Assembly (NCBI GenBank): GCA_963668425.1 | Contig: OY764332.1 | Location: 188,943 to 252,942, forward strand | Origin: Minisyncoccota bacterium | GTDB lineage: Bacteria > Patescibacteriota > Minisyncoccia > Phycocordibacterales > JABAAK01 | DNA length: 64,000 nt | Direction of reading: 5' to 3' | In this document: piece after piece, positions 16,199 to 55,429 of the stretch | Numbering within the stretch: the first letter of the stretch is position 1 | Layout of the letters: every line of letters begins with the position of its first letter | Made by a program: the position numbers and the translations under genes | The notes under the pieces: generated by a model | Databases searched by the model: none | What the model was told of the DNA's origin: nothing | What the model saw: the letters and a program-made list of their open reading frames with translations, nothing else

Positions 16199-16290
<92 letters not shown>

Positions 16291-44700: not shown

Positions 44701-45870
44701 TCATTGACTATATAGTGAAAAATGATCCGCGCCTATAGTGGAAATGTGATCAATCCTTTTTTGGGCTTCACTTTCACTAAACCCTTCTGCCTCTAATCCT
44801 TTTGTCACAGGACCTTTGAGGTTATCATATCTACTTTTATTTTTTACTTCATATACAGCCTTGAATCCGCTGTCTTTTGCTGCTCGTATGAACGCAACGA
44901 TGTTTGTCGCGTTCGGGGTTGTGGTGGTAAAGTTTGCGTCAACACAGGTGCAGTTTTCTGGTTTATGGCAACTGTTCTGGTGAGTGAGTGTTGGTGGACA
45001 CGCTTCAGTAACACGCCATTTCGCACTACTCTGCCCGGCAAGTTTCTGTAACTTTTCCCCAACACCCTTACTGACCCAGCATGCGTCTGTTTGATTGAAC
45101 TCATTATTTGGTTTATTTTTTTTATTGGTACACAGCTCGTGGGCATCCTTAAAACTCACCCCAAGAATACTTGCTGTTTCTGTCTGACAGCCGGGACATC
45201 TCTGCAAACTTGTAGGTTGTTGCTGTTGACCCGGATCTGGTCCCGTGGACTCTGTTGGCTCTATCGGATCATCTGTGGCTTCTGTTGGTTCCGCTGGCTC
45301 AGGTGCTGTAGGTTCTGTTGCAGGCGTTGTATCTACGGGCTCTGTTGGTGTAACTGGATCAGGAGTTGGGGACTTTGTCAGATTTGCAACATCTGGGGTT
45401 GGTAGTGATGACTCATCATATTTAAATGGATCACCATCGTTTAGATTGTAGCCGATAATATCAAAGCCGGCCTTGACAATGAGATATGCGCTGAGAATGA
45501 AGAGAAGTCCTACTAATGTTGCTCTGAGTGCATCCTGCACCTCTTTTCTTGCCTGCTGATGCCCACCTTTTGTAAACACATTGACTGCTAATTTTGTTCC
45601 TTTGTAGAAAATAAGCAACCCTGCCCCGGTAATTGCGACCCAAAGAAGTAGTTTCATCACATTATTTGCCAATTGAAAAAAATGCTTAATACTACAATCC
45701 TCCTTTCCACTTTCACCAAAACTACAATCTATTATTAGATTTGACTGTTCTGGTGTTTTTGTCACTAATGCGTTGTTTGTTTGACCAAGTACGACTGTAC
45801 TACTTATGATTGAACTTGCCACAAACACTACCGCCACAACAAGAAAATATGCCGTCTTTTGTTTGTACAT
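44701..45870 (-). CDS. hypothetical envelope protein: signal peptide, TrbC/VirB2-like two-helix module, Pro/Thr/Glu linker, Cys-rich C-terminal domain
   Basis: Start at MYKQKTAYFLVVAVVFVASSIISSTVVLG (45870). Helix pair VMKLLLWVAITGAGLLIFYKG...LRATLVGLLFILSAYLIVKAGF. Linker PTPDPVTPTEPVDTTPATEPTAPEPAEPTE. The C-terminal ~180 aa contain 9 Cys. Confidence 0.55.
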   Translation of the reverse strand: MYKQKTAYFLVVAVVFVASSIISSTVVLGQTNNALVTKTPEQSNLIIDCSFGESGKEDCSIKHFFQLANNVMKLLLWVAITGAGLLIFYKGTKLAVNVFTKGGHQQARKEVQDALRATLVGLLFILSAYLIVKAGFDIIGYNLNDGDPFKYDESSLPTPDVANLTKSPTPDPVTPTEPVDTTPATEPTAPEPAEPTEATDDPIEPTESTGPDPGQQQQPTSLQRCPGCQTETASILGVSFKDAHELCTNKKNKPNNEFNQTDACWVSKGVGEKLQKLAGQSSAKWRVTEACPPTLTHQNSCHKPENCTCVDANFTTTTPNATNIVAFIRAAKDSGFKAVYEVKNKSRYDNLKGPVTKGLEAEGFSESEAQKRIDHISTIGADHFSLYSQ

Positions 45871-45950
45871 GCTGCTGTCAGTATACCGCACGTCAACGTT
45901 CCTTATTCTGCTCTTGTGGTGTCTATACGGCTGTGTTATCATGTACTCTA

Positions 45951-46645: not shown

Positions 46646-47617
46646 TTATTGTTGCAAAAATGCATCCACAATCTGCTCAACATCGGTGGCGTTTTGTGCT
46701 TCGTCCATGAGTTTCATGCGGAGTTGTTTAGCACCGACAAAGCCCTCAATATATGCTTTGTAATGTTTTTTCATCAGGTTAAATGATTTTGTTGGCAGTT
46801 TTTCTTCAAACAGCTTGGTGTGTTCAACCATTACCCGCAACTGCTTTTTGATTGGTACTGCGCTTCGTGAAACCTTTTTGTTAAAAAGCCATGGATTACC
46901 AAACATACCCCTTCCTATCATGATTCCGTCGCACCCGCTCTCCTGTGCTTTCTGCTCACCATCTGCTCTATCCATCACATCACCATTACCAACCAACAGT
47001 GTCTTTGGCGCGAGTGTGTCTCGCAGAGCAACAATACGACTCATTGCCTCCCAGTGTGCTGGCACTTTTGACATTTCTTTTCTTGTGCGTAGATGTACTG
47101 ATAGTGCAACAATGTTTGTTTGTAGTAATGTTGGTATCCATGAGTCAATTTCATCTTGATTGTAGCCCATTCTAGTTTTTACCGACACAGGCAAACCGGT
47201 TTGCATTGCCGCCTCTATAATGGTAGTTGCTGCTTTTGGGTTTCTAATCATATCGCATCCACATCCTTGTTTTTCAATTTTTCGATCAGGGCACCCCATA
47301 TTAATATCTAATCCGTCAAAACCAAGCTCTTTTACCAGCATTCCTGCTTTATACATATTCTTTGGATCGCTTGTAAATAATTGTGCAACAATCGGTCGCT
47401 GATTTTCTTCAAATAGCAAATCAATTTTAAGTGACTCCCGCCCAGGTGAACACAATCCATCAGCAGATACAAACTCTGTCCAAAATACATCTGGCTTTCC
47501 ATACTTTGCAAACATCGTGCGGAAAGAGGTATCTGTTACATCTGCCATGGGTGCAAGCGCAAAAAACGGGCGTGGTAATGTATCCCAGAAAGAATCTTTT
47601 TTTTCATATTTTTTCAT
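46646..47617 (-). CDS. dus: tRNA-dihydrouridine synthase
   Basis: FALAPMADVTDTSFR...DINMGCP...VSVKTRMG...HLRTRKEM...GNGDV (Dus TIM-barrel motifs). Confidence 0.88.
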   Translation of the reverse strand: MKKYEKKDSFWDTLPRPFFALAPMADVTDTSFRTMFAKYGKPDVFWTEFVSADGLCSPGRESLKIDLLFEENQRPIVAQLFTSDPKNMYKAGMLVKELGFDGLDINMGCPDRKIEKQGCGCDMIRNPKAATTIIEAAMQTGLPVSVKTRMGYNQDEIDSWIPTLLQTNIVALSVHLRTRKEMSKVPAHWEAMSRIVALRDTLAPKTLLVGNGDVMDRADGEQKAQESGCDGIMIGRGMFGNPWLFNKKVSRSAVPIKKQLRVMVEHTKLFEEKLPTKSFNLMKKHYKAYIEGFVGAKQLRMKLMDEAQNATDVEQIVDAFLQQ

Positions 47618-48422
47618 ACAGAATACTTAATGGATTGCGGACATCAACGGATATAATTTCCGCCAGTTTTTCTGGATTAGAAAACACTTCTTCAAACACG
47701 ATGTGGAGTGCTCGGGTTGTGTCGTGTGTTGACTCACTGATATCAAGCCAAATACCAATACTGTTTTCAAGTTCAATATGTACCACCTTTGTATCCCGTC
47801 GTAGTGATATCTTTTTTACTAAAAAACCACCATTTTCAAGATACTGCACTATCTCAGGTATTTTTTGAAAATCTGTTATCGCTGAGATACCGTCATCAAA
47901 TATCTGATCACTGAGATGTAGTGTATTAGAGACGGCAATGGTAGTGCCAACCTGTATGTCTGTCTTCATAAAGGCAACTCCTTCTGTGTCAATAATGAGA
48001 CACTGTGTGTCTGAGCAATAGGTACCGAACGATGTTCTTTTTTTTGCCACGATCTGCCATTTATTTAAGAAATTTGATTTTACACTAACGGCGTCTGCCT
48101 GTAAAAAATTTGTTCGTACCATATTTTCAAATTCTTGTTTTTTGAAAAAGTATCGTGTTTTTCCCGGCACTCCATAGACCTTATCACTGAGCGCTTTCTT
48201 TGCATACGTAAGTATTTTTGTTCGTACTGTCTGATCTATATCAGATTCTGGCGCTATAGCAATTGACTGCACTGAAATAAATGGTAGATGTAATGCAGTT
48301 GCTGCAATGATGATTATGATTGCTGTCCCTAGCACAATGCGAATAGTTATCCGTAGCAATTTTTGTGTTGACTTACGGAGAAACCAAATTTTTATTTTAC
48401 TCTTTAGTCCTCTCTTCCTCAT
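47604..48422 (-). CDS. FtsQ-like cell division protein (TM + POTRA)
   Basis: Basic N-terminus, TM IVLGTAIIIIIAATALHL, then ISVQSIAIAPESDIDQTVRTKILTYAKK...LQADAVSVKSNFLNKWQIVAKKRTSFG, which resembles a POTRA_1 arrangement. Confidence 0.5.
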   Translation of the reverse strand: MRKRGLKSKIKIWFLRKSTQKLLRITIRIVLGTAIIIIIAATALHLPFISVQSIAIAPESDIDQTVRTKILTYAKKALSDKVYGVPGKTRYFFKKQEFENMVRTNFLQADAVSVKSNFLNKWQIVAKKRTSFGTYCSDTQCLIIDTEGVAFMKTDIQVGTTIAVSNTLHLSDQIFDDGISAITDFQKIPEIVQYLENGGFLVKKISLRRDTKVVHIELENSIGIWLDISESTHDTTRALHIVFEEVFSNPEKLAEIISVDVRNPLSILYEKI

Positions 48423-48564: not shown

Positions 48565-50631
48565 TTATGGTGTCGGTCTTTTGTCCCGAAACCCTACCCC
48601 GTGCAATCGCACTATATCAAGCCCTCCAGTTGGTCCGGCTGTTGTCGGAAGGTGGTATCGCTCAATGTGGTCAGTATCGCTGCAAACGGTATTTAACTCT
48701 ATGCCGCTATATTGTTCTTTTGCTCCTGTCGTTGGCTCCAGGAGATACACTTCGTCAACCTTCCCAGAAATGAGCGAGGTTCCTATCACAGCTACAATAT
48801 TTTTACTTGGGTGCTTATTGGAAAGACGGTTAAAGACAACCTGCTGATCATTTTCTGCGGTTGTATCACACAAGACTCTTTGCTTGTTGTTTGGTGCCTC
48901 GTTTTTGTTGAACACTGAGATGACTGTCGCGGTATCCGATGCTCTCACACCGCTAAAATATACCAGTCGCCCATTTTTATTAATAGCTATAGGTAGGTTC
49001 CTGAAATGCAGATGATCAGTGAGTGGTGATGTATCACTTGTTGCGATTGTGGTTACTGTGGTATCAAGTATGCTGTCAATGGCACAAAGGGCGGTGCCAT
49101 CTGAGCATAGTATGGTGTATGTATTCAACCCATTGCCGTATGCAAAAATATTTCCGTTGGCAATTGCGTCACTTCGCTTTAATTTTGATGCTCTTGAGCC
49201 GGCCGATACCACGTGCTTACCGGCGCTGTCCCGATACCAGAGTGAAACTGTGTTGTTGATAACCTGCAATGCATCAAGGAATCTGAAAGACACATTGTTA
49301 ATTTCACTCGGTGTGATGTTGGTGTTGTTGTCTGGGTTTGGGTCTGGGTATATCTGTCGACAACGATTACTGGATGTGTTGTTCGGCACATACTCAAATT
49401 CACTACACCCGCCGTTAATATCACCTGAGGAGATAGGGGCGTTGCCACTGAATAGGCGAACCGTTCGATTGCCGGCAGTATTTCTGAAGTATATAAGCAC
49501 TCGATTAGCATCACTGTATATGTGTCGTACGGTGTTCTTGCTGACACCACCCTCTACGATACGGGTTGAGGAAGCATTATCAATTCTATAGAGCACACCA
49601 CTGTATGATCGTGCGTATAGGAGCCCTCCTGAAGGGTGGATGGACACAATGCTTCGCGGATCGTTTGTGCAAAAGCGACAGGTGCTGAGGTTTGACTTCC
49701 CCAGTACCCGAACAACAGCATCCTGTATCCTGGAAGACACTTTATACACCGCATCTTTTACTCCAACAGACCCGCTTGCAGTTAGCGCTTCATCTATGGA
49801 TGTCTGTGGAATGAAAAAGAGTAGTCCATTATCTCCGAGGATATAGAGCCCATCGTTAGTAAATTCAGCTGCGATTATTTTTGCACTCTCTTCACAAAAA
49901 CTATCCACAAAGGTGTTTCCTAATCCATCCCGACATACGATTTCAGCATTCTCTGGATTAGTGACGATACTGCCGTTCTCATCAAGGTACTGCCCTGACT
50001 CATCCACTCTTGGGCCATATGCATAGTGATACACAACTGAGGCATCTTCATTTTCGGAGCTGCTGACAAAGGTGCTCAGAATATTTTGACCTGGCTCAAG
50101 TATGCGGCTGGTAATCTGTGTCTTGAATGAGATTTGTTTTGTATTGCCGTCAATGACATATTCCGCATCAATTTGTGCCTGTACTCTCGGTTGCTTTGTA
50201 GTGTCATTTTCTAGTTCAAAGGAGAGGTTTGTTACCGAAACGGACTTGTCAGTAAACGGCACCCATCCATCAGAGGAGCTGCATGTATTCGGGTCTGGAT
50301 CAAATAGTTTTTTTGCTCGCTTTACCTGCTTATTTGTACTGTCATACCAAATTTTTATTCGTGCATTTAATTGATCAGTAAATGCCAGGCAGTGGCATGT
50401 GTTTCCTACCGTTTGCCCACAGGTGTAGTCATACCCGAAATAGGTCTCGCGTGATAACTCAGAGAACAGAAACCGAACGGTCTCAAGTGCAACTCTCTCA
50501 TCCTGTACCCGCACTTGCTGCCCAATAAATGTGGTAAAAAAGCTTAACATAGTGGTCAACACAATACTCGCCAATCCGATAGCGACAATGAGTTCAATGA
50601 GTGTAAAGCCCCGTGTATGTGAAGACCTCAT
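48565..50631 (-). CDS. large (688 aa) type IV pilin-like protein with prepilin N-terminal methylation motif
   Basis: MRSSHTRGFTLIELIVAIGLASIVLTTMLSFF is a class III signal peptide (G/FTLIE). Start at Met14 (50631). Confidence 0.75.
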   Translation of the reverse strand: MRSSHTRGFTLIELIVAIGLASIVLTTMLSFFTTFIGQQVRVQDERVALETVRFLFSELSRETYFGYDYTCGQTVGNTCHCLAFTDQLNARIKIWYDSTNKQVKRAKKLFDPDPNTCSSSDGWVPFTDKSVSVTNLSFELENDTTKQPRVQAQIDAEYVIDGNTKQISFKTQITSRILEPGQNILSTFVSSSENEDASVVYHYAYGPRVDESGQYLDENGSIVTNPENAEIVCRDGLGNTFVDSFCEESAKIIAAEFTNDGLYILGDNGLLFFIPQTSIDEALTASGSVGVKDAVYKVSSRIQDAVVRVLGKSNLSTCRFCTNDPRSIVSIHPSGGLLYARSYSGVLYRIDNASSTRIVEGGVSKNTVRHIYSDANRVLIYFRNTAGNRTVRLFSGNAPISSGDINGGCSEFEYVPNNTSSNRCRQIYPDPNPDNNTNITPSEINNVSFRFLDALQVINNTVSLWYRDSAGKHVVSAGSRASKLKRSDAIANGNIFAYGNGLNTYTILCSDGTALCAIDSILDTTVTTIATSDTSPLTDHLHFRNLPIAINKNGRLVYFSGVRASDTATVISVFNKNEAPNNKQRVLCDTTAENDQQVVFNRLSNKHPSKNIVAVIGTSLISGKVDEVYLLEPTTGAKEQYSGIELNTVCSDTDHIERYHLPTTAGPTGGLDIVRLHGVGFRDKRPTP

Positions 50632-50803
50632 GTACTTATAATACCACCCTGCTGTGGTGGCATAGGACACTGTATTGCCATTATAATTAGGTAGATATAT
50701 TCTAATGTGTATGCAAAAAGGGACTTAATTTGCCCTTAAACATGCTCTGCAGTTATCAAAAAACCCTATAAAATAAGGATTTTTCTTATATTTTCTCTTA
50801 AAA

Positions 50804-50832
50804 TTGACGAAATTTGATAAATATTGTATACT
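50804..50832 (+). promoter_or_regulatory. near-consensus sigma70-type promoter
   Basis: TTGACG (50804-50809), 17-bp spacer, TATACT (50827-50832), in an AT-rich 280-bp gap. Confidence 0.6.
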
Positions 50833-50850
50833 ATATATAGTTTTTCTTTG

Positions 50851-50914
50851 ACACACAATCCACATAAGGCAATCTATATCTGATACAAATGGTTGTTTTG
50901 TGTGGGTTGTGTGT
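50851..50914 (+). promoter_or_regulatory. long inverted repeat / 5' leader hairpin
   Basis: ACACACAATCCACA (50851-50864) pairs with TGTGGGTTGTGTGT (50901-50914): 14 bp with one G-U, 36-nt loop. It lies between the promoter and the SD at 50939-50943. Confidence 0.5.
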
Positions 50915-50949
50915 TGTAATTTAACTAAATAACTAAAAAAGGAGAATGT

Positions 50950-51273
50950 ATGTTAGGAACTGGAATTTCTGTAAATGGAGAGCGTGTGTTGCTGAGCCCT
51001 GAACCTCAGGAAACGGAAGCGATTGATGGTTCCGCTGATCGTGGGATCATTTTGGTTGACAACCTCGGCAAGAGATCGGTTTTTATGCCGAAGGGCACCT
51101 CCCGGAGAGATCGTGCACGACATAGGAGCAAGAGACCGATCCGATCTTGGGTGTCCCGCTTTTGCTCAGAGGCACGTGGGCAGATATCTGCCCACACGTA
51201 CTTGCGGGTAAATGGCACTGTAACCATATATCCCGCCTCTGAAGATCTTAGACGAATGCTCCTAAGTGATTAA
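50950..51273 (+). CDS. orphan 107-aa basic protein, possibly a divergent or frame-disrupted Cpn10/GroES-like gene
   Basis: AAGGAG lies 5 nt upstream of the ATG, and the ORF ends 35 nt before a strong terminator. N-terminal ISVNGERVLLSPEPQETEAIDGSADRGIILVDNLGK and C-terminal YLRVNGTVTIYPASEDLRRML resemble the GroES ends. The middle is Arg-rich in this frame, while frame +1 reads PPGEIVHDIGARDRSDLG...HVGRYL. The region is visibly GC-richer than its flanks, and three frames are open. Confidence 0.45.
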   Translation: MLGTGISVNGERVLLSPEPQETEAIDGSADRGIILVDNLGKRSVFMPKGTSRRDRARHRSKRPIRSWVSRFCSEARGQISAHTYLRVNGTVTIYPASEDLRRMLLSD

Positions 51274-51308
51274 ACTTTAAAGGCAGTGAGGATTTGCCTG
51301 AAACCTCA

Positions 51309-51349
51309 ACCCAGCAGTTTACTAAACACTGCTGGGTTTTTTGTTTTTT
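51309..51349 (+). terminator. rho-independent terminator
   Basis: ACCCAGCAG-(11 nt)-CTGCTGGGT followed by TTTTTGTTTTTT. Confidence 0.8.
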
Positions 51350-51379: not shown

Positions 51380-52966
51380 TTATATCGGTGGTGTTCGGTA
51401 GGTAACCGCTTCCAGAATATGATCCGGCAAAATATCTGCACTTTCCGCTAAGTCGGCAATGGTTCTTGCACATTTGATTGTGCGATGATAGCCACGTGGA
51501 GACAGTGAGAGTTTTGTTGCAGCTGATTGAAGTATAGAGACCGATTCAGATGGCATCGCAAGATGACTTTCAATAATCCGTGCATCGGCTTCACTGTTGA
51601 GATGTATGTGGGTGTTCGTATACCGATTTGCCTGTGCTTTCCGTGCTTTATGTACTGCTGCTTTGATACTGTTTGTTTTTGTGGCATCTTGTGGCACCTG
51701 CTTCTTTTCTAGTTCATCAAAGTTGCTTGCCTCCACTGCTATCCATACATCAATACGGTCGGCGATTGGTCCGGTGAGTTTTCGGCGATATGCTGTTTTT
51801 GACGATGGCGAACAAGAACATATTTTATCGGTACCTGTATTGCCGCACGGACATAGATTAAATGCAATCACCAGAGTGCATGATGCTGGGAATCTGACCG
51901 ATCCACTTGTTCTGGTGACAGTGATAGCATGCTCTTCAAGTGGCTCTCGTAGTGATTCAATAACCCGTCTATCAAACTCAGGAAACTCATCTAGGAACAG
52001 CACACCACGATGTGCAAGGGATATCTCGCCTGGACGTAGCGCTCTGCCACCACCTGTAATTGATGCATATGAAGAGGTGTGGTGTGGGTTGCGAAATGGT
52101 GGTGTACTAATCGGCTCGGAAGGGATGCTATGAGAGATTGAATGTAGAGATGTCACTTCAACACATTCATTTTTTGTGAGTGGTGGTAGGATACTGATAA
52201 GTGCTTTTGCTAGTAATGTTTTACCGGCACCTGGTGGTCCGTATAGTGCGATATTGTGTCCGCCTGCGCCGGCAACGGTAAGTGCTCGTTTCACACTTTC
52301 CTGCCCTTTTACACACTCAAAGTCAACATAGTTGTTGGTGTTTTTCTCGGGGATATATGATGGCATAGTTGGGGGTATGTTTGTCTCGGACTGCAGGTGT
52401 GCTATAACTACCTGCAACGATTTACATGGAATGATGCTTATGCCGTCAATCAGTGCTGCTTCTTTTGTATTGCCGAAAGGGATGTATACTTCTTCAAATC
52501 CATTTTTCTTTGCGTGTTGCAGGATTGGTAGTATCCCTCGTGTTGATTGAATACTGCCGTCTAATGCTAATTCGCCGATGAATAGTTTTTTCTCTGGGTT
52601 AAAATAGAGTTTTTTTATGGCAAGTAAATAGGTGAGGGCGACTGGAACATCAAATAGCGTGCCGGTTTTTTTCAGATCACCTGGTGCAAGTGAGACAACA
52701 ATTTTATGATTTTGTTGTTTTGGTGAGATGAGTCCAGAATGTTTGATTGCCGCGGCTACTCGTTCTCGTGCCTCATCAACTGCTTTATCAGGCAGCCCGA
52801 TGATGGAGAATGTATGAATACCGGGGGAGATATCAACCTCAACTCGCACTGTTTGTGCTGCCAGAGATATTCGTTGGGCACTGTAGGTGTATGCGTGTGT
52901 TGTGTTTTGTGTATTTTTTTTCACATACTCACTATAGTACAGTCGCGTGAAAAAGTAAAAAATCAC
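51380..52966 (-). CDS. comM: Mg-chelatase-like AAA+ protein YifB/ComM
   Basis: ...VRVEVDISPGIHTFSIIGLPDKAVDEARERV..., Walker A YGPPGAGKTLLAKA, ...FLDEFPEF... The start is uncertain: GTG at 52966 as tracked, or in-frame GTG at 52924. Confidence 0.88.
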   Translation of the reverse strand: MIFYFFTRLYYSEYVKKNTQNTTHAYTYSAQRISLAAQTVRVEVDISPGIHTFSIIGLPDKAVDEARERVAAAIKHSGLISPKQQNHKIVVSLAPGDLKKTGTLFDVPVALTYLLAIKKLYFNPEKKLFIGELALDGSIQSTRGILPILQHAKKNGFEEVYIPFGNTKEAALIDGISIIPCKSLQVVIAHLQSETNIPPTMPSYIPEKNTNNYVDFECVKGQESVKRALTVAGAGGHNIALYGPPGAGKTLLAKALISILPPLTKNECVEVTSLHSISHSIPSEPISTPPFRNPHHTSSYASITGGGRALRPGEISLAHRGVLFLDEFPEFDRRVIESLREPLEEHAITVTRTSGSVRFPASCTLVIAFNLCPCGNTGTDKICSCSPSSKTAYRRKLTGPIADRIDVWIAVEASNFDELEKKQVPQDATKTNSIKAAVHKARKAQANRYTNTHIHLNSEADARIIESHLAMPSESVSILQSAATKLSLSPRGYHRTIKCARTIADLAESADILPDHILEAVTYRTPPI

Positions 52967-52980
52967 CGAACAACGTTGTC

Positions 52981-54693
52981 TTAAAAGGTATTTGTGGAAC
53001 GGATTCTTGCGTTTATGAGTGGTATAACGGATTCTTCACCGGCAATAAACACTAGGATGGATCGGCCAAAGAAGTAATAGAAAATCTCTTTTTGACTTGA
53101 CGGGTTTCGTATCACACGAACATCTTGGTTATCAATAATACGAGATTCAACAATCACATTACTTACTTTTGACTGTTGGAAGAAGTTCGGAAAAACAGCA
53201 AGGAAGGCGTTGATTGCATTCTTTTCCCAGTTCCGTATCCACACAAATGCATCACCGTATTTTTTTACTGATGCAATGAATATGCCGTTTACTTCAGTTT
53301 GTGTCAGATATTTTCCGACGAAATAGTAATCGTCAAAGGCGTTTTGTAACCCTCCTGGAAAACGCACATTGAAAGTGTCGGAAAAATCCTCAAAGCTGAT
53401 TTGCAATTCTTTTTCTTCAACCGGCTTATACGGCACATACTTTGTTATTGTGTCCTGTTCACCTTTTTTTTCTGTGATAGATTGCCATGTATCAGATAGG
53501 GCTATTGTATCTGATGTATCTACAAATACTTGATTTTCACTGTTGAGCACATCGGATACCAGAGTTATATCTGCTGTGCCGTTGCTGTTTTCGATCGGTT
53601 TTTCTGCAGGAGACAGTGCGAGGAATATAATAGAAAAAAGCAACCCGGCGAGTAGGAAAAAGACGATGGCAAGTAATAACATATTTTGTCTCCGAAGTGG
53701 CTTGTTCGGTACCGGCTCATCCGAAGAAGTGGCATATGACCGGACATCCCGTGCTTTTAATCCTATTTGTTGTAATTTTTTCTTTTTTTGCTTGAAATCT
53801 TTCCATGCGTCCTGGATTGCTCCCTTTTCAATAACTTCCTGCTGCTTCTGCTTTAGTGACTCCCTTTTTTCTTTTGTAAAAACATCTTTGGGGCGTATTC
53901 TGCCTTGGGCTCGTGCAAAAATACCCTTCCTTTCTGCTGTTGGATCGCTTGATTTTTCTGTGCTGCTTGGTGCCCTTGTATCAGGACTCTTAGTTGGCGT
54001 GGCAGGTTTTGACTGTTCTCCTTTTGGGGTACTTGCTGTACCGGAGACAGGTTTTCCTGATGGCTCTTTTTGTTGTTCTTTGGTAGCATCATGCGCTGAT
54101 TGCATGTATGCAGTTGCTCCAGAGAGAATACGAGTTATGTTTTCTTGATCGATGGATTTTGCATCGGCATTAATGGTGGATGCTTTTGGTGTTTGTGTGC
54201 CAACGCCCTGCTTTTGTTTTCCTTGGACGAAATTTTTATACCTGTCCCGCAACACCACTGACTCCTTCATGACGTCTTTAGTTTTTCTGAGATACTCTTC
54301 CTGCGCTTGTCGCTTTTCTTCTGCCTCTTTTGCTAGTATGGTGCGTAATTCGGCACCACCTTTTGTTTGTGCCATGTCTCTTGTGTCCTGATGATAGGTT
54401 CGCAAGACGGGTACCATGTACTCTTTTTTGTTTTCTTTGTCTTTTTTTGGAAGTTTTTCTGTCGTTGTGTTTTTATTTTGTATCTCTTGCTCAACGGTAT
54501 TTTTTTTGTGCTCATTTTTTTTACCCTCTCGCATAAATTCACCGGACTCATCAACAGCTGAAGCGTTAATAGACGCGAGGTCAATGGTGTCTTTTTGCGG
54601 CAGGTTTGTCGCTTTCTCATTACCTTGCAAGGAAGATGTGTCAGATTTTACTTTATTTTTATCACTGGGTATCTGTTTTTTATCTTGTGCCAT
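52981..54693 (-). CDS. hypothetical membrane protein: ~340-aa K/E/T-rich disordered N-terminus, one TM, ~210-aa C-terminal domain
   Basis: TM MLLLAIVFFLLAGLLFSIIFLAL. No recognisable domain. Confidence 0.6.
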   Translation of the reverse strand: MAQDKKQIPSDKNKVKSDTSSLQGNEKATNLPQKDTIDLASINASAVDESGEFMREGKKNEHKKNTVEQEIQNKNTTTEKLPKKDKENKKEYMVPVLRTYHQDTRDMAQTKGGAELRTILAKEAEEKRQAQEEYLRKTKDVMKESVVLRDRYKNFVQGKQKQGVGTQTPKASTINADAKSIDQENITRILSGATAYMQSAHDATKEQQKEPSGKPVSGTASTPKGEQSKPATPTKSPDTRAPSSTEKSSDPTAERKGIFARAQGRIRPKDVFTKEKRESLKQKQQEVIEKGAIQDAWKDFKQKKKKLQQIGLKARDVRSYATSSDEPVPNKPLRRQNMLLLAIVFFLLAGLLFSIIFLALSPAEKPIENSNGTADITLVSDVLNSENQVFVDTSDTIALSDTWQSITEKKGEQDTITKYVPYKPVEEKELQISFEDFSDTFNVRFPGGLQNAFDDYYFVGKYLTQTEVNGIFIASVKKYGDAFVWIRNWEKNAINAFLAVFPNFFQQSKVSNVIVESRIIDNQDVRVIRNPSSQKEIFYYFFGRSILVFIAGEESVIPLINARIRSTNTF

Positions 54694-54808: not shown

Positions 54809-55429
54809 ATGTTTCAATACAAAAAAGCAGTCCAAGTACTTAATTTTTTTGCTCGCAAGGCAGAGGAGGAGGGGGTTTCGCTGTATAAGACGAATATGCT
54901 GAAGTTGGTATACTTTGCTGACAAAAAACACCTCAGGGAATCATTGCGGACTATTACCGCGGACAGTTATATTGCAAAACAGAAGGGACCTGTGGCACGA
55001 GATACCTGCGCCCTCATTGAAACTCAGGCAGGTACTACAGAACAGGAATCGGAAACTGTGCAATATGCGAATACATTTATTATTTCTGAGGAAAAATGGC
55101 GACCATGGAATAGGAAAAAAGGTATAAAAATAATGTCAAAAAAGGAAGTTGATAAAAAGGTGCTTTCAGCGTCAGACATAGAAACACTTACTTTTATATG
55201 GAGTGTATGCAAAGCGGACTTGCGGGACTTATGGAAAAAAACTCATTTATATCCGGAAGGGAAAAAAGCAGAGGGAGGGAGGGCATGGGCGGAAATTAAG
55301 GAAGAAGAGCTTTTCAGTACAATTGAGAATGATCCACTCGGTGAGCAAACTGTTGCAGAGATTAAAAATGCTGAAGAGTTGTACCGAGAGCGGAAGGAGG
55401 CGAAAATGGCATTCGGAATAACAACCTAA
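54809..55429 (+). CDS. Panacea/DUF4065 (SocA-like) domain protein, putative antitoxin
   Basis: AVQVLNFFARKAEEEGVSLYKTNMLKLVYFADKKHLRESLRTITADSYIAKQKGPVARDTCALIE matches the K(L)xKLxYFAD...G.P(I)t...Y.A...GPV pattern of the family. Confidence 0.7.
   Translation: MFQYKKAVQVLNFFARKAEEEGVSLYKTNMLKLVYFADKKHLRESLRTITADSYIAKQKGPVARDTCALIETQAGTTEQESETVQYANTFIISEEKWRPWNRKKGIKIMSKKEVDKKVLSASDIETLTFIWSVCKADLRDLWKKTHLYPEGKKAEGGRAWAEIKEEELFSTIENDPLGEQTVAEIKNAEELYRERKEAKMAFGITT

Follow-up and report, generated by a model that had tools for sequence, protein, structure and literature searches.

The 709-nt gap between a pilin-like gene and comM in the window (the whole 64,000-nt stretch of DNA that was analysed) carries a single conserved monocistronic gene. 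This gene is probably tightly insulated, with a structured mRNA that is either stable or translationally gated and a product that is likely to be an RNA-binding protein. An earlier reading made from the letters alone (the sequence-only reading) had described a self-contained unit encoding an orphan Cpn10/GroES-like protein whose similarity changed reading frame; the unit and its orphan status were borne out, and the Cpn10 similarity and the frame change were not.

Anatomy and conservation of the transcription unit

The features of the locus are collected in Table 1. The gap had been put at about 700 bp, close to the measured length, and the signals picked out by eye were all recovered: the TTGACG-17-TATACT promoter (by a promoter consensus scan, which scored it as near-consensus with 10 of 12 matches), AAGGAG placed 5 nt before ATG, the 107-codon ORF, and a strong terminator with an 11-bp perfect stem, a 9-nt loop and a T-run reaching 51349. 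The terminator stem corresponds to inverted repeat I6, is 100% complementary and is unique in the window, where the chance expectation is 0. A simple terminator scan missed it because its loop of 9 nt exceeds the 8-nt limit of that scan.

Table 1. Features of the orphan gene locus and its neighbours (positions in the window)
Feature	Position	Strand	Details
Pilin-like ORF (N_methyl motif)	48565..50670	-	Neighbour of the orphan ORF
Sigma-70-type promoter	50804..50832	+	-35 TTGACG 50804-50809, 17-nt spacer, -10 TATACT 50827-50832
5' untranslated leader, ~111 nt	50839..50949	+	Predicted start near 50839
CU-rich 5'-terminal segment GUUUUUCUU, candidate anti-SD	50840..50848	+	Predicted pairing with SD region
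Leader hairpin, 26 contiguous bp, 16-nt variable loop	50849..50916	+	50849-50874 with 50891-50916, MFE folds
Shine-Dalgarno (SD) AAGGAG	50939..50944	+	5 nt upstream of ATG (50950)
CDS, 107 codons + stop	50950..51273	+	ORF listing, family alignment, single frame
Hairpin H1	51045..51057	+	Alignment A10 columns 102-106/110-114, consensus fold
Hairpin H2	51063..51094	+	A10 columns 129-140/148-160, consensus fold
Hairpin H3	51163..51174	+	A10 columns 232-235/240-243
Hairpin H4, GTGGGCAG-ATAT-CTGCCCAC	51176..51195	+	Inverted repeat I7; consensus part 51178-51183/51188-51193
Hairpin H5, GGGTAAATGG / CCATATATCC	51206..51233	+	Shared base-pair probabilities
Hairpin H6	51240..51265	+	A10 columns 309-314/329-334
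3' UTR element GGCAGTGAGGATTTGCC..AACCTCA	51282..51308	+	Downstream sequences compared and aligned
Intrinsic terminator	51308..51349	+	Stem 51308-51318/51328-51338, 9-nt loop, then TTTTTTGTTTTTT
ComM	51380..52966	-	Neighbour, convergent with the orphan ORF

Eight loci, including that of the window, could be compared with their context, and all have the order pilin-like gene (- strand), orphan ORF (+) and ComM (-). The parts of the unit, from promoter through leader, SD and ORF to terminator, were all found again in the relatives. A regular expression for TTGACn-17-TATAyT locates the promoter at the equivalent place in seven loci, while L004 has TTGACA-17-CATACT at the equivalent position, and a purine-rich SD with equal spacing precedes the ORF in all eight. 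The terminator stem is present in 7/7 aligned loci, with changes that are one-sided or compensatory; that of L005 carries CCCCACAG/CTGTGGGG. Both promoter and terminator have been conserved despite saturated synonymous sites in the adjacent coding sequence. The 3' UTR element is near-identical in the window, L005 and L007, and partially conserved in L008. An insertion sequence adjoins the locus in L005.

A small basic protein restricted to one clade

Comparison of the orthologous loci shows this to be a genuine gene that encodes, in a single frame, a small and basic protein limited to its lineage. The stretch is indeed open in three frames in the window, as had been described (50950..51273 and 51023..51211 on the + strand, 51006..51227 on the - strand), and the 50950 frame (+1) is the sole one that is open in 8/8 loci, the others being interrupted by stops in all or some of them. 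Indels relative to L001 are of 6, 9 and 6 nt, and all indels are in frame. The window and L001 differ at 31, 23 and 58 sites in codon positions 1, 2 and 3, respectively, and in most of the 28 pairs of loci third-position differences are about twice as frequent as those at positions 1 and 2. Among the orthologous loci, pN is 0.27-0.50 compared with a saturated pS of 0.59-0.84, and omega is roughly 0.16-0.64 where dS is computable, synonymous sites being near saturation. Thus the frame is kept open, differences follow a three-base periodicity, and pN is below pS, the pattern of a protein-coding gene under purifying selection. The ORF evolves much faster than its neighbour genes and looks young.

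The family comprises nine members among the ~15 billion proteins searched, all from one isolated clade of Patescibacteria. This host clade is poorly sampled and has genomes of ~0.65-0.85 Mb. Searches of six-frame ORFs from 80 other Patescibacteria ComM loci with the family HMM gave 0 matches, so the family is confined to the clade; nor were there matches of the family profile to GTDB genome contigs, JGI metagenome contigs or IMG/VR, or by tblastn to phage and plasmid collections. The description of the ORF as an orphan was well founded, with no library family or solved fold matched: nothing above chance level came from scanning the nine members with Pfam, PHROGs, NCBIfam and PADLOC or from a profile search of PDB sequences.

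The nine proteins (~95-135 aa, pI 9.1-10.9) align along their full length. The window product has a pI of 10.4 and is 14% arginine. An AF2 model built from the nine sequences (pLDDT 81.6, pTM 0.72) predicts an alpha/beta fold: a beta-sheet at the N-terminus, an Arg-rich helical segment in the middle and a beta-beta-alpha unit at the C-terminus. The middle (residues ~50-66) is conserved as protein in all nine members and forms a basic helix of the type R-K-E-R-A-R-x-K...R-x-W in the family alignment; residues 51-60 are modelled with lower confidence (pLDDT 64).

The sequence-only reading had seen Cpn10/GroES in the two ends of the product and in a second frame for the middle, and had proposed a cpn10 gene with two compensating frameshifts, an overprinted basic middle or a sequencing-indel artefact. 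So far as sequence analysis reaches, the Cpn10 reading is refuted, and we give its variants next to no chance. What speaks for it is that, by eye, the product begins with ~30 residues that look like the N-terminus of GroES, and hhalign, when the family was compared with a GroES alignment, picked the same stretch of ~30 residues, though with a probability of 0.7%. Against this, no Cpn10 signal was obtained in any frame or from any member: Pfam at E<=10 returned 0 families for the ORF and the alternative-frame ORFs, none of the nine members matched Cpn10, BLASTP against Escherichia coli GroES gave E=1.3 over 17 residues, and a fold search did not recover the GroES beta-barrel. The supposed GroES-like middle lies in the +2 frame, which has 1-6 stops inside the coding sequence in every locus. 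The similarity therefore does not switch frame: the middle is conserved in the 50950 frame, the alternative frames are not kept open and the indels are in frame. Nor was the basic middle newly created by overprinting, since its Arg-rich segment is conserved in the nine members and no homology or conservation continues into a second frame. An artefact of sequencing indels can be discarded, since the 50950 frame recurs in assemblies made independently of one another from different samples. As had been noted, the next gene is convergent and is not groEL; it is ComM in the window and the seven other loci, groEL is adjacent to the ORF in 0/8 loci, and tblastn with GroES across the window gave 0 matches. 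GroES and the orphan protein are alike in length (~100 aa), in a beta-rich N-terminal half and in the chance-level resemblance over ~30 N-terminal residues. GroES is, however, acidic to neutral and all-beta, and unlike Cpn10/GroES (PF00166) the orphan protein is basic, has an Arg-rich helical middle and lacks a groEL partner.

RNA structure of the leader and coding region

Counted from the predicted start, the leader is ~110 nt long, as had been estimated, but its hairpin is longer than the 14 bp first counted, with 26 contiguous base pairs. The leader fold of the window has an MFE of -39.9 kcal/mol (z = -6.6), and z ranges from -4.3 to -8.1 in five of the seven other loci. For the hairpin itself, compared across the window, L001, L006, L007 and L008, 92% of cells are paired (37-55% in slid controls) and four pairs have changed on both sides. 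Because many of its pairs are G-U, the hairpin forms in the sense RNA only, and a covariance model gives 75-92 bits for the sense strand compared with 22-35 for the antisense strand. The same model found no second copy over the window and the seven other loci, and such a single-copy hairpin is therefore not a regulon-wide element. It is also dispensable, as L003, L004 and L005 do without it. A tandem repeat search found only a 2 x 8-nt repeat, which lies in the leader.

The SD is mostly paired in all of the full-length predicted folds, with partners that differ between loci; its predicted P(unpaired) is 0.11-0.48, and 0.19 in the window. One candidate partner is the CU-rich segment at the 5' end, which in several members would form A-U and G-U pairs with it. 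The candidate duplex is marginal in the window (-7.2 kcal/mol, equalled or bettered by 6% of shuffles) and stronger in L006 (-12.8 kcal/mol, 0.4% of shuffles) and L007 (-14.9, 0.6%), and is not significant against shuffles in the other five loci.

The body of the unit had been described as GC-richer than its surroundings and as possibly a structured RNA, and both points held. Its G+C is 0.51 compared with 0.42 for the window, placing it in the top 0.4-0.6% of same-size windows. On the evidence of folding and covariation, the coding region is a strongly structured RNA in all eight loci, with at least six hairpins conserved in position by compensatory changes, some of them nonsynonymous. Compared with synonymous-codon shuffles, the coding sequences of all eight loci fold with z of -3.4 to -10.8, whereas 29 control coding segments have a mean z of -0.39 (sd 0.95, minimum -2.9). 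Of the eight, the window copy shows the least structure, its z of -3.4 comparing with -2.9 in one control segment, and L003 reaches z = -12.9 against dinucleotide shuffles. The RNAalifold energy of the alignment is -24.9, compared with -2.7 +/- 2.5 for synonymous shuffles. In the six helices of the consensus, pairing extends to 89% of cells, and both sides have changed in 14 of the 39 pairs, a level reached by 0/500 shuffles (slid controls, 40-52% paired); these figures come from 7-8 related sequences and the structure tested was drawn from the same alignment, which biases the controls in favour of the structure.

Individual helices differ in support. H1 (86% of cells paired, 3/5 pairs changed on both sides) forms, in the window, the inner portion of a longer stem-loop of 11 bp (51025-51051). 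H2 (87%, 5/10 pairs) is longer in L003 (23 bp) and L008 (19 bp). H3 is the weakest of the six (79%, 2/4 pairs), while H4, an 8-bp perfect palindrome in the window, has 94% of cells paired, all of its changes being one-sided. H6 (93%, 2/6 pairs) is weakest in the window and reaches 10-12 bp in L001, L003, L004 and L006. In H5 (92% of cells paired), the pair 278-299 is A-U in three sequences and U-A in three. Its compensatory changes alter residues 87/94, which are V/Y (gUa-uAu), E/F (gAa-uUu) or V/H (guG-Cau). No motif is shared among the loop sequences of the hairpins in the coding region.

Known RNA families do not account for the structure. At the gathering threshold Rfam matches the window only once, with a tRNA (16202-16290), and at E<=10 nothing between 50600 and 51450 came near threshold, the best models within the unit being microRNA-type hairpins at 14-25 bits. 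ARAGORN found no tmRNA or tRNA at the locus. RNase P, 6S and SRP RNA were dropped as identities in view of the missing Rfam match and the clear coding signature, and a CRISPR- or TIGR-like array was set aside, there being no direct-repeat families of note beyond the short leader repeat. There is a local dip in cumulative GC skew, but gene orientation does not flip there, and the reading as a replication origin was dropped for this reason. Literature on structured RNAs of Patescibacteria yielded nothing relevant.

The strength of the structure and its covariation, together with a protein that has no known homologue or fold, would suit a purely non-coding structured RNA whose ORF arose by accident from sequence that is G+C-rich and palindromic. 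This is very unlikely, given that the identical frame is open in eight loci, each time after an SD and an ATG, with indels in multiples of three, three-base periodicity and pN below pS; moreover, nine sequences suffice for a confident AF2 fold, and Rfam matches are absent. Recent acquisition of foreign or mobile DNA, such as a phage, plasmid or island fragment, was another explanation offered for the raised G+C, and it might draw on the absence of the family beside ComM in the 80 other Patescibacteria and on the insertion sequence beside L005. It is most improbable: the gene occupies the same syntenic slot in eight collinear genomes, the neighbours there are 55-90% identical to those of the window (mostly >70%), viral contigs, phage genomes and plasmids have no match, and flanking direct repeats were not found. 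The rise in G+C is common to all orthologues and lies at codon positions 2 and 3, where it fits the Arg-richness of the protein and the stems; we attribute it to the joint constraint of protein and hairpins. The extra G+C and the several open frames would then both follow from an mRNA dense with conserved hairpins, the additional frames probably being open by chance in the window since inverted repeats read alike on both strands.

Quite unlikely, though less so, is that the hairpins have no function at the RNA level and reflect mutational bias (template switching in quasi-palindromes at replication) in a gene born of intergenic DNA rich in palindromes. Quasi-palindrome mutagenesis is established as a way of perfecting inverted repeats from a template, and would explain the long near-perfect stems (23 bp in L003, 19-20 bp in L008 and L001) and the variation in stem extent among close relatives; the gene is also young-looking and fast-evolving. 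However, templated correction predicts equal stability of the two strands, and the sense strand is the more stable in 8/8 loci, by 6-32 kcal/mol. G-U pairs are commoner on the sense strand in 7/8 loci, and each MFE fold contains 4-28 of them, which on the opposite strand would become A-C mismatches. The leader hairpin is likewise sense-specific, and helix positions have stayed constant across saturated synonymous divergence.

Proposed role and comparison with known systems

In the explanation that we favour, the chain of hairpins would make the mRNA long-lived, translationally gated or both. The 5' hairpin and compact fold would be expected to slow decay, while the predicted pairing of the SD, in some members with the CU-rich 5' end, could restrain translation. 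From its composition and by analogy, we infer that the Arg-rich protein is a nucleic-acid binder. RNA hairpins would be its most plausible ligands, and those of its own message are possible targets, which would lead to autoregulation. A more far-reaching version, unlikely but worth stating, is a one-gene ribonucleoprotein system, in which the hairpin-chain RNA of ~510 nt would act in its own right (as scaffold, sponge or regulator) and would encode the Arg-rich binder of its hairpins. It would then be a dual-function RNA, its structure kept even at amino-acid cost and the two constraints co-evolving codon by codon.

For the favoured reading, a structured message for a probable RNA-binding protein, the locus is a clear case, found in nature, of two constraints overlapping in one bacterial gene, those of a protein and of dense mRNA hairpins, in which some compensatory base-pair changes are paid for by amino-acid replacements (residues 87/94). 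Such overlap is well known in RNA viruses and, to our knowledge, rarely documented in bacterial chromosomes. In genomes as small as these, retained genes with their own promoter and terminator are likely to matter. The locus also illustrates how a hairpin-rich coding sequence can imitate the signals of foreign DNA and of multi-frame coding. If the protein binds its own message, it would be a compact model for the evolution of autoregulatory ribonucleoproteins.

Arginine-rich-motif (ARM) proteins such as lambda N, P22 N and HIV Rev/Tat bind RNA hairpins. The orphan protein has no detectable homology to them and resembles them by analogy only, in having a conserved basic helix encoded by an RNA rich in hairpins; the lower model confidence at residues 51-60 is as expected for a segment that becomes ordered on binding. 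Its motif sits in a folded alpha/beta domain, however, and not in a free peptide.

Structured or gated messages include the fold-back-inhibited hok-type toxin mRNAs, cspA mRNA and the fourU/ROSE RNA thermometers. Like these, the present mRNA is predicted to have a mostly paired SD, with which a U/C-rich 5' segment would pair in several members. It differs from all of them in that the anti-SD pairing reaches significance in no more than 2-3 of the eight loci, and from the hok type in that it specifies a hydrophilic, basic protein of 107 aa rather than a small membrane toxin, and no antisense partner RNA was found.

Dual-function RNAs are represented by Staphylococcus RNAIII, which has 514 nt and 14 stem-loops and encodes delta-haemolysin, and by SgrS/SgrT. 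The locus has no sequence relation to either, its hairpins lie inside the ORF, and that ORF takes up 63% of the transcript and specifies a folded protein of ~100 aa, not a short peptide. What it shares with them is a predicted monocistronic hairpin-chain transcript running from a strong promoter to an intrinsic terminator, with an ORF and with structure conserved beyond coding needs.

Genomic setting and anatomy of the unit

The unit occupies a 709 nt gap in the window, between two minus-strand genes. All of the elements listed in the sequence-only reading were found (promoter, leader, SD-ATG, 107-codon ORF and terminator), although the leader hairpin had been made too small there. The terminator was missed by a simple terminator scan only because its loop exceeds the 8 nt limit of that scan. 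The unit is monocistronic, with a conserved consensus promoter, an intrinsic terminator and a predicted transcript of ~510 nt that forms a chain of hairpins.

Features of the unit and its surroundings (window coordinates)
Feature	Position	Strand	Details
413-aa protein	44701-45942	-	weak T4SS-pilin match, no further recognisable domains; conserved in clade
272-aa protein	47604-48422		no Pfam match; conserved in clade
Pilin-like ORF	48565-50670	-	701 codons; prepilin N-methylation motif at N-terminus, no further recognisable domains; conserved in clade
Second small upstream hairpin	50718-50740		upstream of -35
Small upstream hairpin AAAAACCCTATAAAATAAGGATTTTT	50759-50787		upstream of -35, between A-run and T-run
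Promoter TTGACG-17-TATACT	50804-50832	+	promoter scan
Leader		+	about 111 nt, precedes ATG
Leader hairpin	50849-50874 with 50891-50916	+	26 contiguous pairs
SD AAGGAG, 5-nt spacer, ATG	ATG at 50950	+	sequence inspection
ORF	50950-51273	+	107 codons
Hairpin H5	51206-51233		within CDS
3′ UTR element GGCAGTGAGGATTTGCC..AACCTCA	51282-51308		
Terminator	51308-51318/51328-51338	+	11-bp perfect stem, 9-nt loop, T-run
ComM/Mg-chelatase-type ATPase	51380-52966	-	convergent to ORF
570-aa protein	52981-54693		no Pfam match; conserved in clade
SocA/Panacea-domain (antitoxin-like) gene	54809-55429	+	between 570-aa gene and PNPase

The family has nine members in about 15 billion proteins, as found by word-indexed searching, by HMMER run exhaustively over 1.84 billion representatives and by a second profile search. 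Eight loci have DNA context (the window, L001/L002 counted as one, and L003–L008), and all eight share the gene order L19, Dus, ~270-aa protein, pilin-like, ORF, convergent ComM, ~565-aa protein, PNPase. The neighbouring proteins are mostly 65–90% identical to those of the window, but the ORF product only 37–61%; the gene evolves fast within the clade. Among 185,579 species-representative genomes the closest ComM proteins, from assorted Patescibacteria, are only about 51% identical, and the family has no member at any of 80 such ComM loci, which restricts the gene to a single isolated clade of Patescibacteria that has been poorly sampled. Judging by contigs of 647, 697 and 847 kb, genomes in the clade are about that large. 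The SocA/Panacea gene is present in the window and L003 and missing in L001, L004, L007 and L008, and so is an insertion that varies between loci while the rest of the region is collinear. In L005 the PNPase gene is split into several short ORFs, by decay or long-read indel errors.

A single conserved reading frame

Comparison of the loci shows purifying selection on the small basic protein that the unit is predicted to encode. Relative to L001, the indels in the well-aligned part are of 6, 9 and 6 nt, and differences at codon positions 1, 2 and 3 number 31, 23 and 58. The third position is the most variable in every other pair as well, about twofold in most, and synonymous sites are near saturation (pS 0.59–0.84, against pN 0.27–0.50). 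As had been noted, the window has three overlapping ORFs here, but the 50950 frame alone stays open throughout the eight loci, the antisense frames varying as well.

The proposal that the ORF is a Cpn10/GroES homologue whose similarity switches frame was not upheld. Neither the ORF nor the other-frame ORFs had a Pfam match even at E ≤ 10, and Cpn10 was matched by none of the nine family members. BLASTP of the ORF against E. coli GroES gave E = 1.3 across 17 residues, the profile of the family against that of four aligned GroES sequences gave a probability of 0.7%, and no groES/groEL signal occurs anywhere within the window. The +2 frame, where the supposed GroES-like middle was seen, carries 1–6 stops within the CDS of every locus, while the Arg-rich middle of the 50950 frame is kept as protein (R/K-K/R-E/D/Q-R-A-R ... 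R-x-W). Sequencing indels are ruled out by the agreement of independent assemblies. With no Pfam, BLASTP or profile signal and a single conserved frame, the identification as a frameshifted chaperonin was dropped; this is very probably a single-frame protein gene and not GroES.

RNA structure inside and outside the coding region

Despite the saturated synonymous sites, the non-coding parts are also conserved across the loci. The promoter is retained in all eight, and the 26-bp leader hairpin in five (92% of cells paired, four pairs with both-sided changes). A covariance model of this hairpin scored 75–92 bits on the sense strand against 22–35 on the antisense and found no second copy in the window or seven loci, so the hairpin is gene-specific. 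L003 has only its 5′ arm, plus a new hairpin preceding the SD; L004 has a short hairpin; and L005 has lost the long leader with its hairpin to an IS insertion. An rve-family (integrase-type) transposase gene lies there between the pilin-like gene and the ORF (L005 4965–5934), with a new promoter-like sequence (TTGACA-17-TATATT) at the end of the insertion. In full-length folds of all eight loci the SD is largely paired (P(unpaired) 0.11–0.48), with differing partners. A CU-rich segment just 3′ of the predicted transcription start can pair with it; this pairing reaches significance in L006 and L007 and is marginal in the window, but the other loci lack it. The stem of the terminator is also kept, in L005 by compensatory changes.

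A structured leader of this kind can be mis-annotated as coding: the database call for L001 (protein P0002, 161 aa, L001 6001–6486) begins inside the promoter/leader and runs across the leader hairpin. Most likely the true start is at L001 6166 (SD GGGGGA, 106 aa).

The window, L005 and L007 have the 3′ UTR element in almost the same form; it is partly kept in L008 and missing in L001, L003, L004 and L006. It is conserved better than the coding sequence; L005 has the most divergent protein (36–37% identity), yet shares it. Upstream of the -35, the AAAAACCCTATAAAATAAGGATTTTT hairpin occurs in seven of the eight loci with compensating changes. This hairpin and the second one together matched the Rfam rimP leader on the minus strand (30.4 bits, below the gathering score of 47). 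They have the look of an insulator, or of a terminator working in both directions, that separates the ORF gene from the divergent pilin-like operon.

Within the CDS, folding was compared with synonymous-codon shuffles that preserve protein sequence and codon usage. All eight loci fold far better than their shuffles (z = -3.4 in the window, -5.2 in L001, -10.8 in L003, -4.9 in L004, -4.7 in L005, -5.4 in L006, -3.9 in L007 and -6.9 in L008), against a mean of -0.39 (sd 0.95, minimum -2.9) for 29 same-length segments of nine other window genes. With dinucleotide shuffles as the reference, the L003 CDS (321 nt, -181 kcal/mol) has z = -12.9. For the codon alignment, a consensus folding energy of -24.9 kcal/mol compares with -2.7 ± 2.5 in synonymous shuffles. 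From seven aligned sequences, RNAalifold returned the terminator and six local CDS helices. In the latter 89% of cells are paired (40–52% in slid registers) and 14 of 39 pairs show both-sided changes; none of 500 column shuffles reached any of the measures. Some compensatory changes are nonsynonymous: in H5 the middle bases of codons 87 and 94 pair, and the residues there are V/Y (U-A), E/F (A-U) or V/H (G-C pair one step along). It is likely that selection acts on RNA structure in the CDS.

The GC-richer body seen in the sequence-only reading was borne out (G+C 0.51 versus 0.42 in the window; top 0.4–0.6% of same-size windows). It is explained by the structured CDS, G+C being raised at codon positions 2 (0.51 versus 0.34–0.45 in neighbouring genes) and 3 (0.48 versus 0.31–0.44), with arginine at 14% of residues. 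The extra open frames in the window would arise because a stop-free frame in an inverted repeat tends to be stop-free backwards.

Stems have been lengthened to 19–23 nearly perfect bp through amino-acid changes in L003 (302–352), L008 (6092–6138) and L001 (6404–6451). For example, KGTS of the window is KLST in L003, a change by which the 3′ arm comes to complement the codons for VDNL. The pattern suggests that selection, or templated mutation, is still driving the stems to greater length.

A pure non-coding RNA with an accidental ORF is contradicted by the frame conservation, the periodicity and the in-frame indels, just as foreign DNA is by the stable synteny and the lack of any mobile-element match. 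Neutral perfection of quasi-palindromes would account for the long perfect stems, but fails on strand asymmetry and G-U usage: the sense strand is stabler than the antisense in all eight loci (by 6–32 kcal/mol) and G-U pairs are commoner on it in seven, so that the constraint is on the mRNA and not the DNA. A CRISPR- or TIGR-like array was excluded, there being no direct repeats.

The protein and comparison with known systems

Family members are 94–136 aa long with pI 9.1–10.9. The structure model predicts a beta-beta-beta-beta, alpha-alpha, beta-beta-alpha topology, with lowest confidence in the basic stretch around residues 50–60. Because the product had no match in Pfam, PHROGs, NCBIfam, PADLOC or PDB sequences, nor in phage collections, plasmid collections or viral contigs, its function is read from composition alone. 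An Arg-rich helix conserved in a protein this small and basic is the hallmark of nucleic-acid binders, especially RNA-hairpin binders. The protein would thus bind nucleic acid, with RNA hairpins a plausible target, and binding to those of its own message could bring about autoregulation; by analogy and not homology, an RNA-binding, autoregulatory role is conceivable but somewhat doubtful. The hairpins, chiefly the long 5′ stem and the terminator, may give a long-lived message, and/or may hold the ribosome-binding site shut until some signal opens it.

The locus holds an orphan gene for a small protein, and the intragenic structure of its message is covarying and unusually dense. Dual protein and RNA constraint across eight genomes, with nonsynonymous compensation, is a real, uncommon and directly testable observation. 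The closest functional analogies, from general knowledge, include dual-function structured RNAs (RNAIII, SgrS), structured, translationally gated mRNAs (hok-type and cspA mRNAs, fourU thermometers) and ARM-type hairpin binders (lambda N, Rev). The locus belongs to none of these groups, and the likeness established is that it is both structured and coding.
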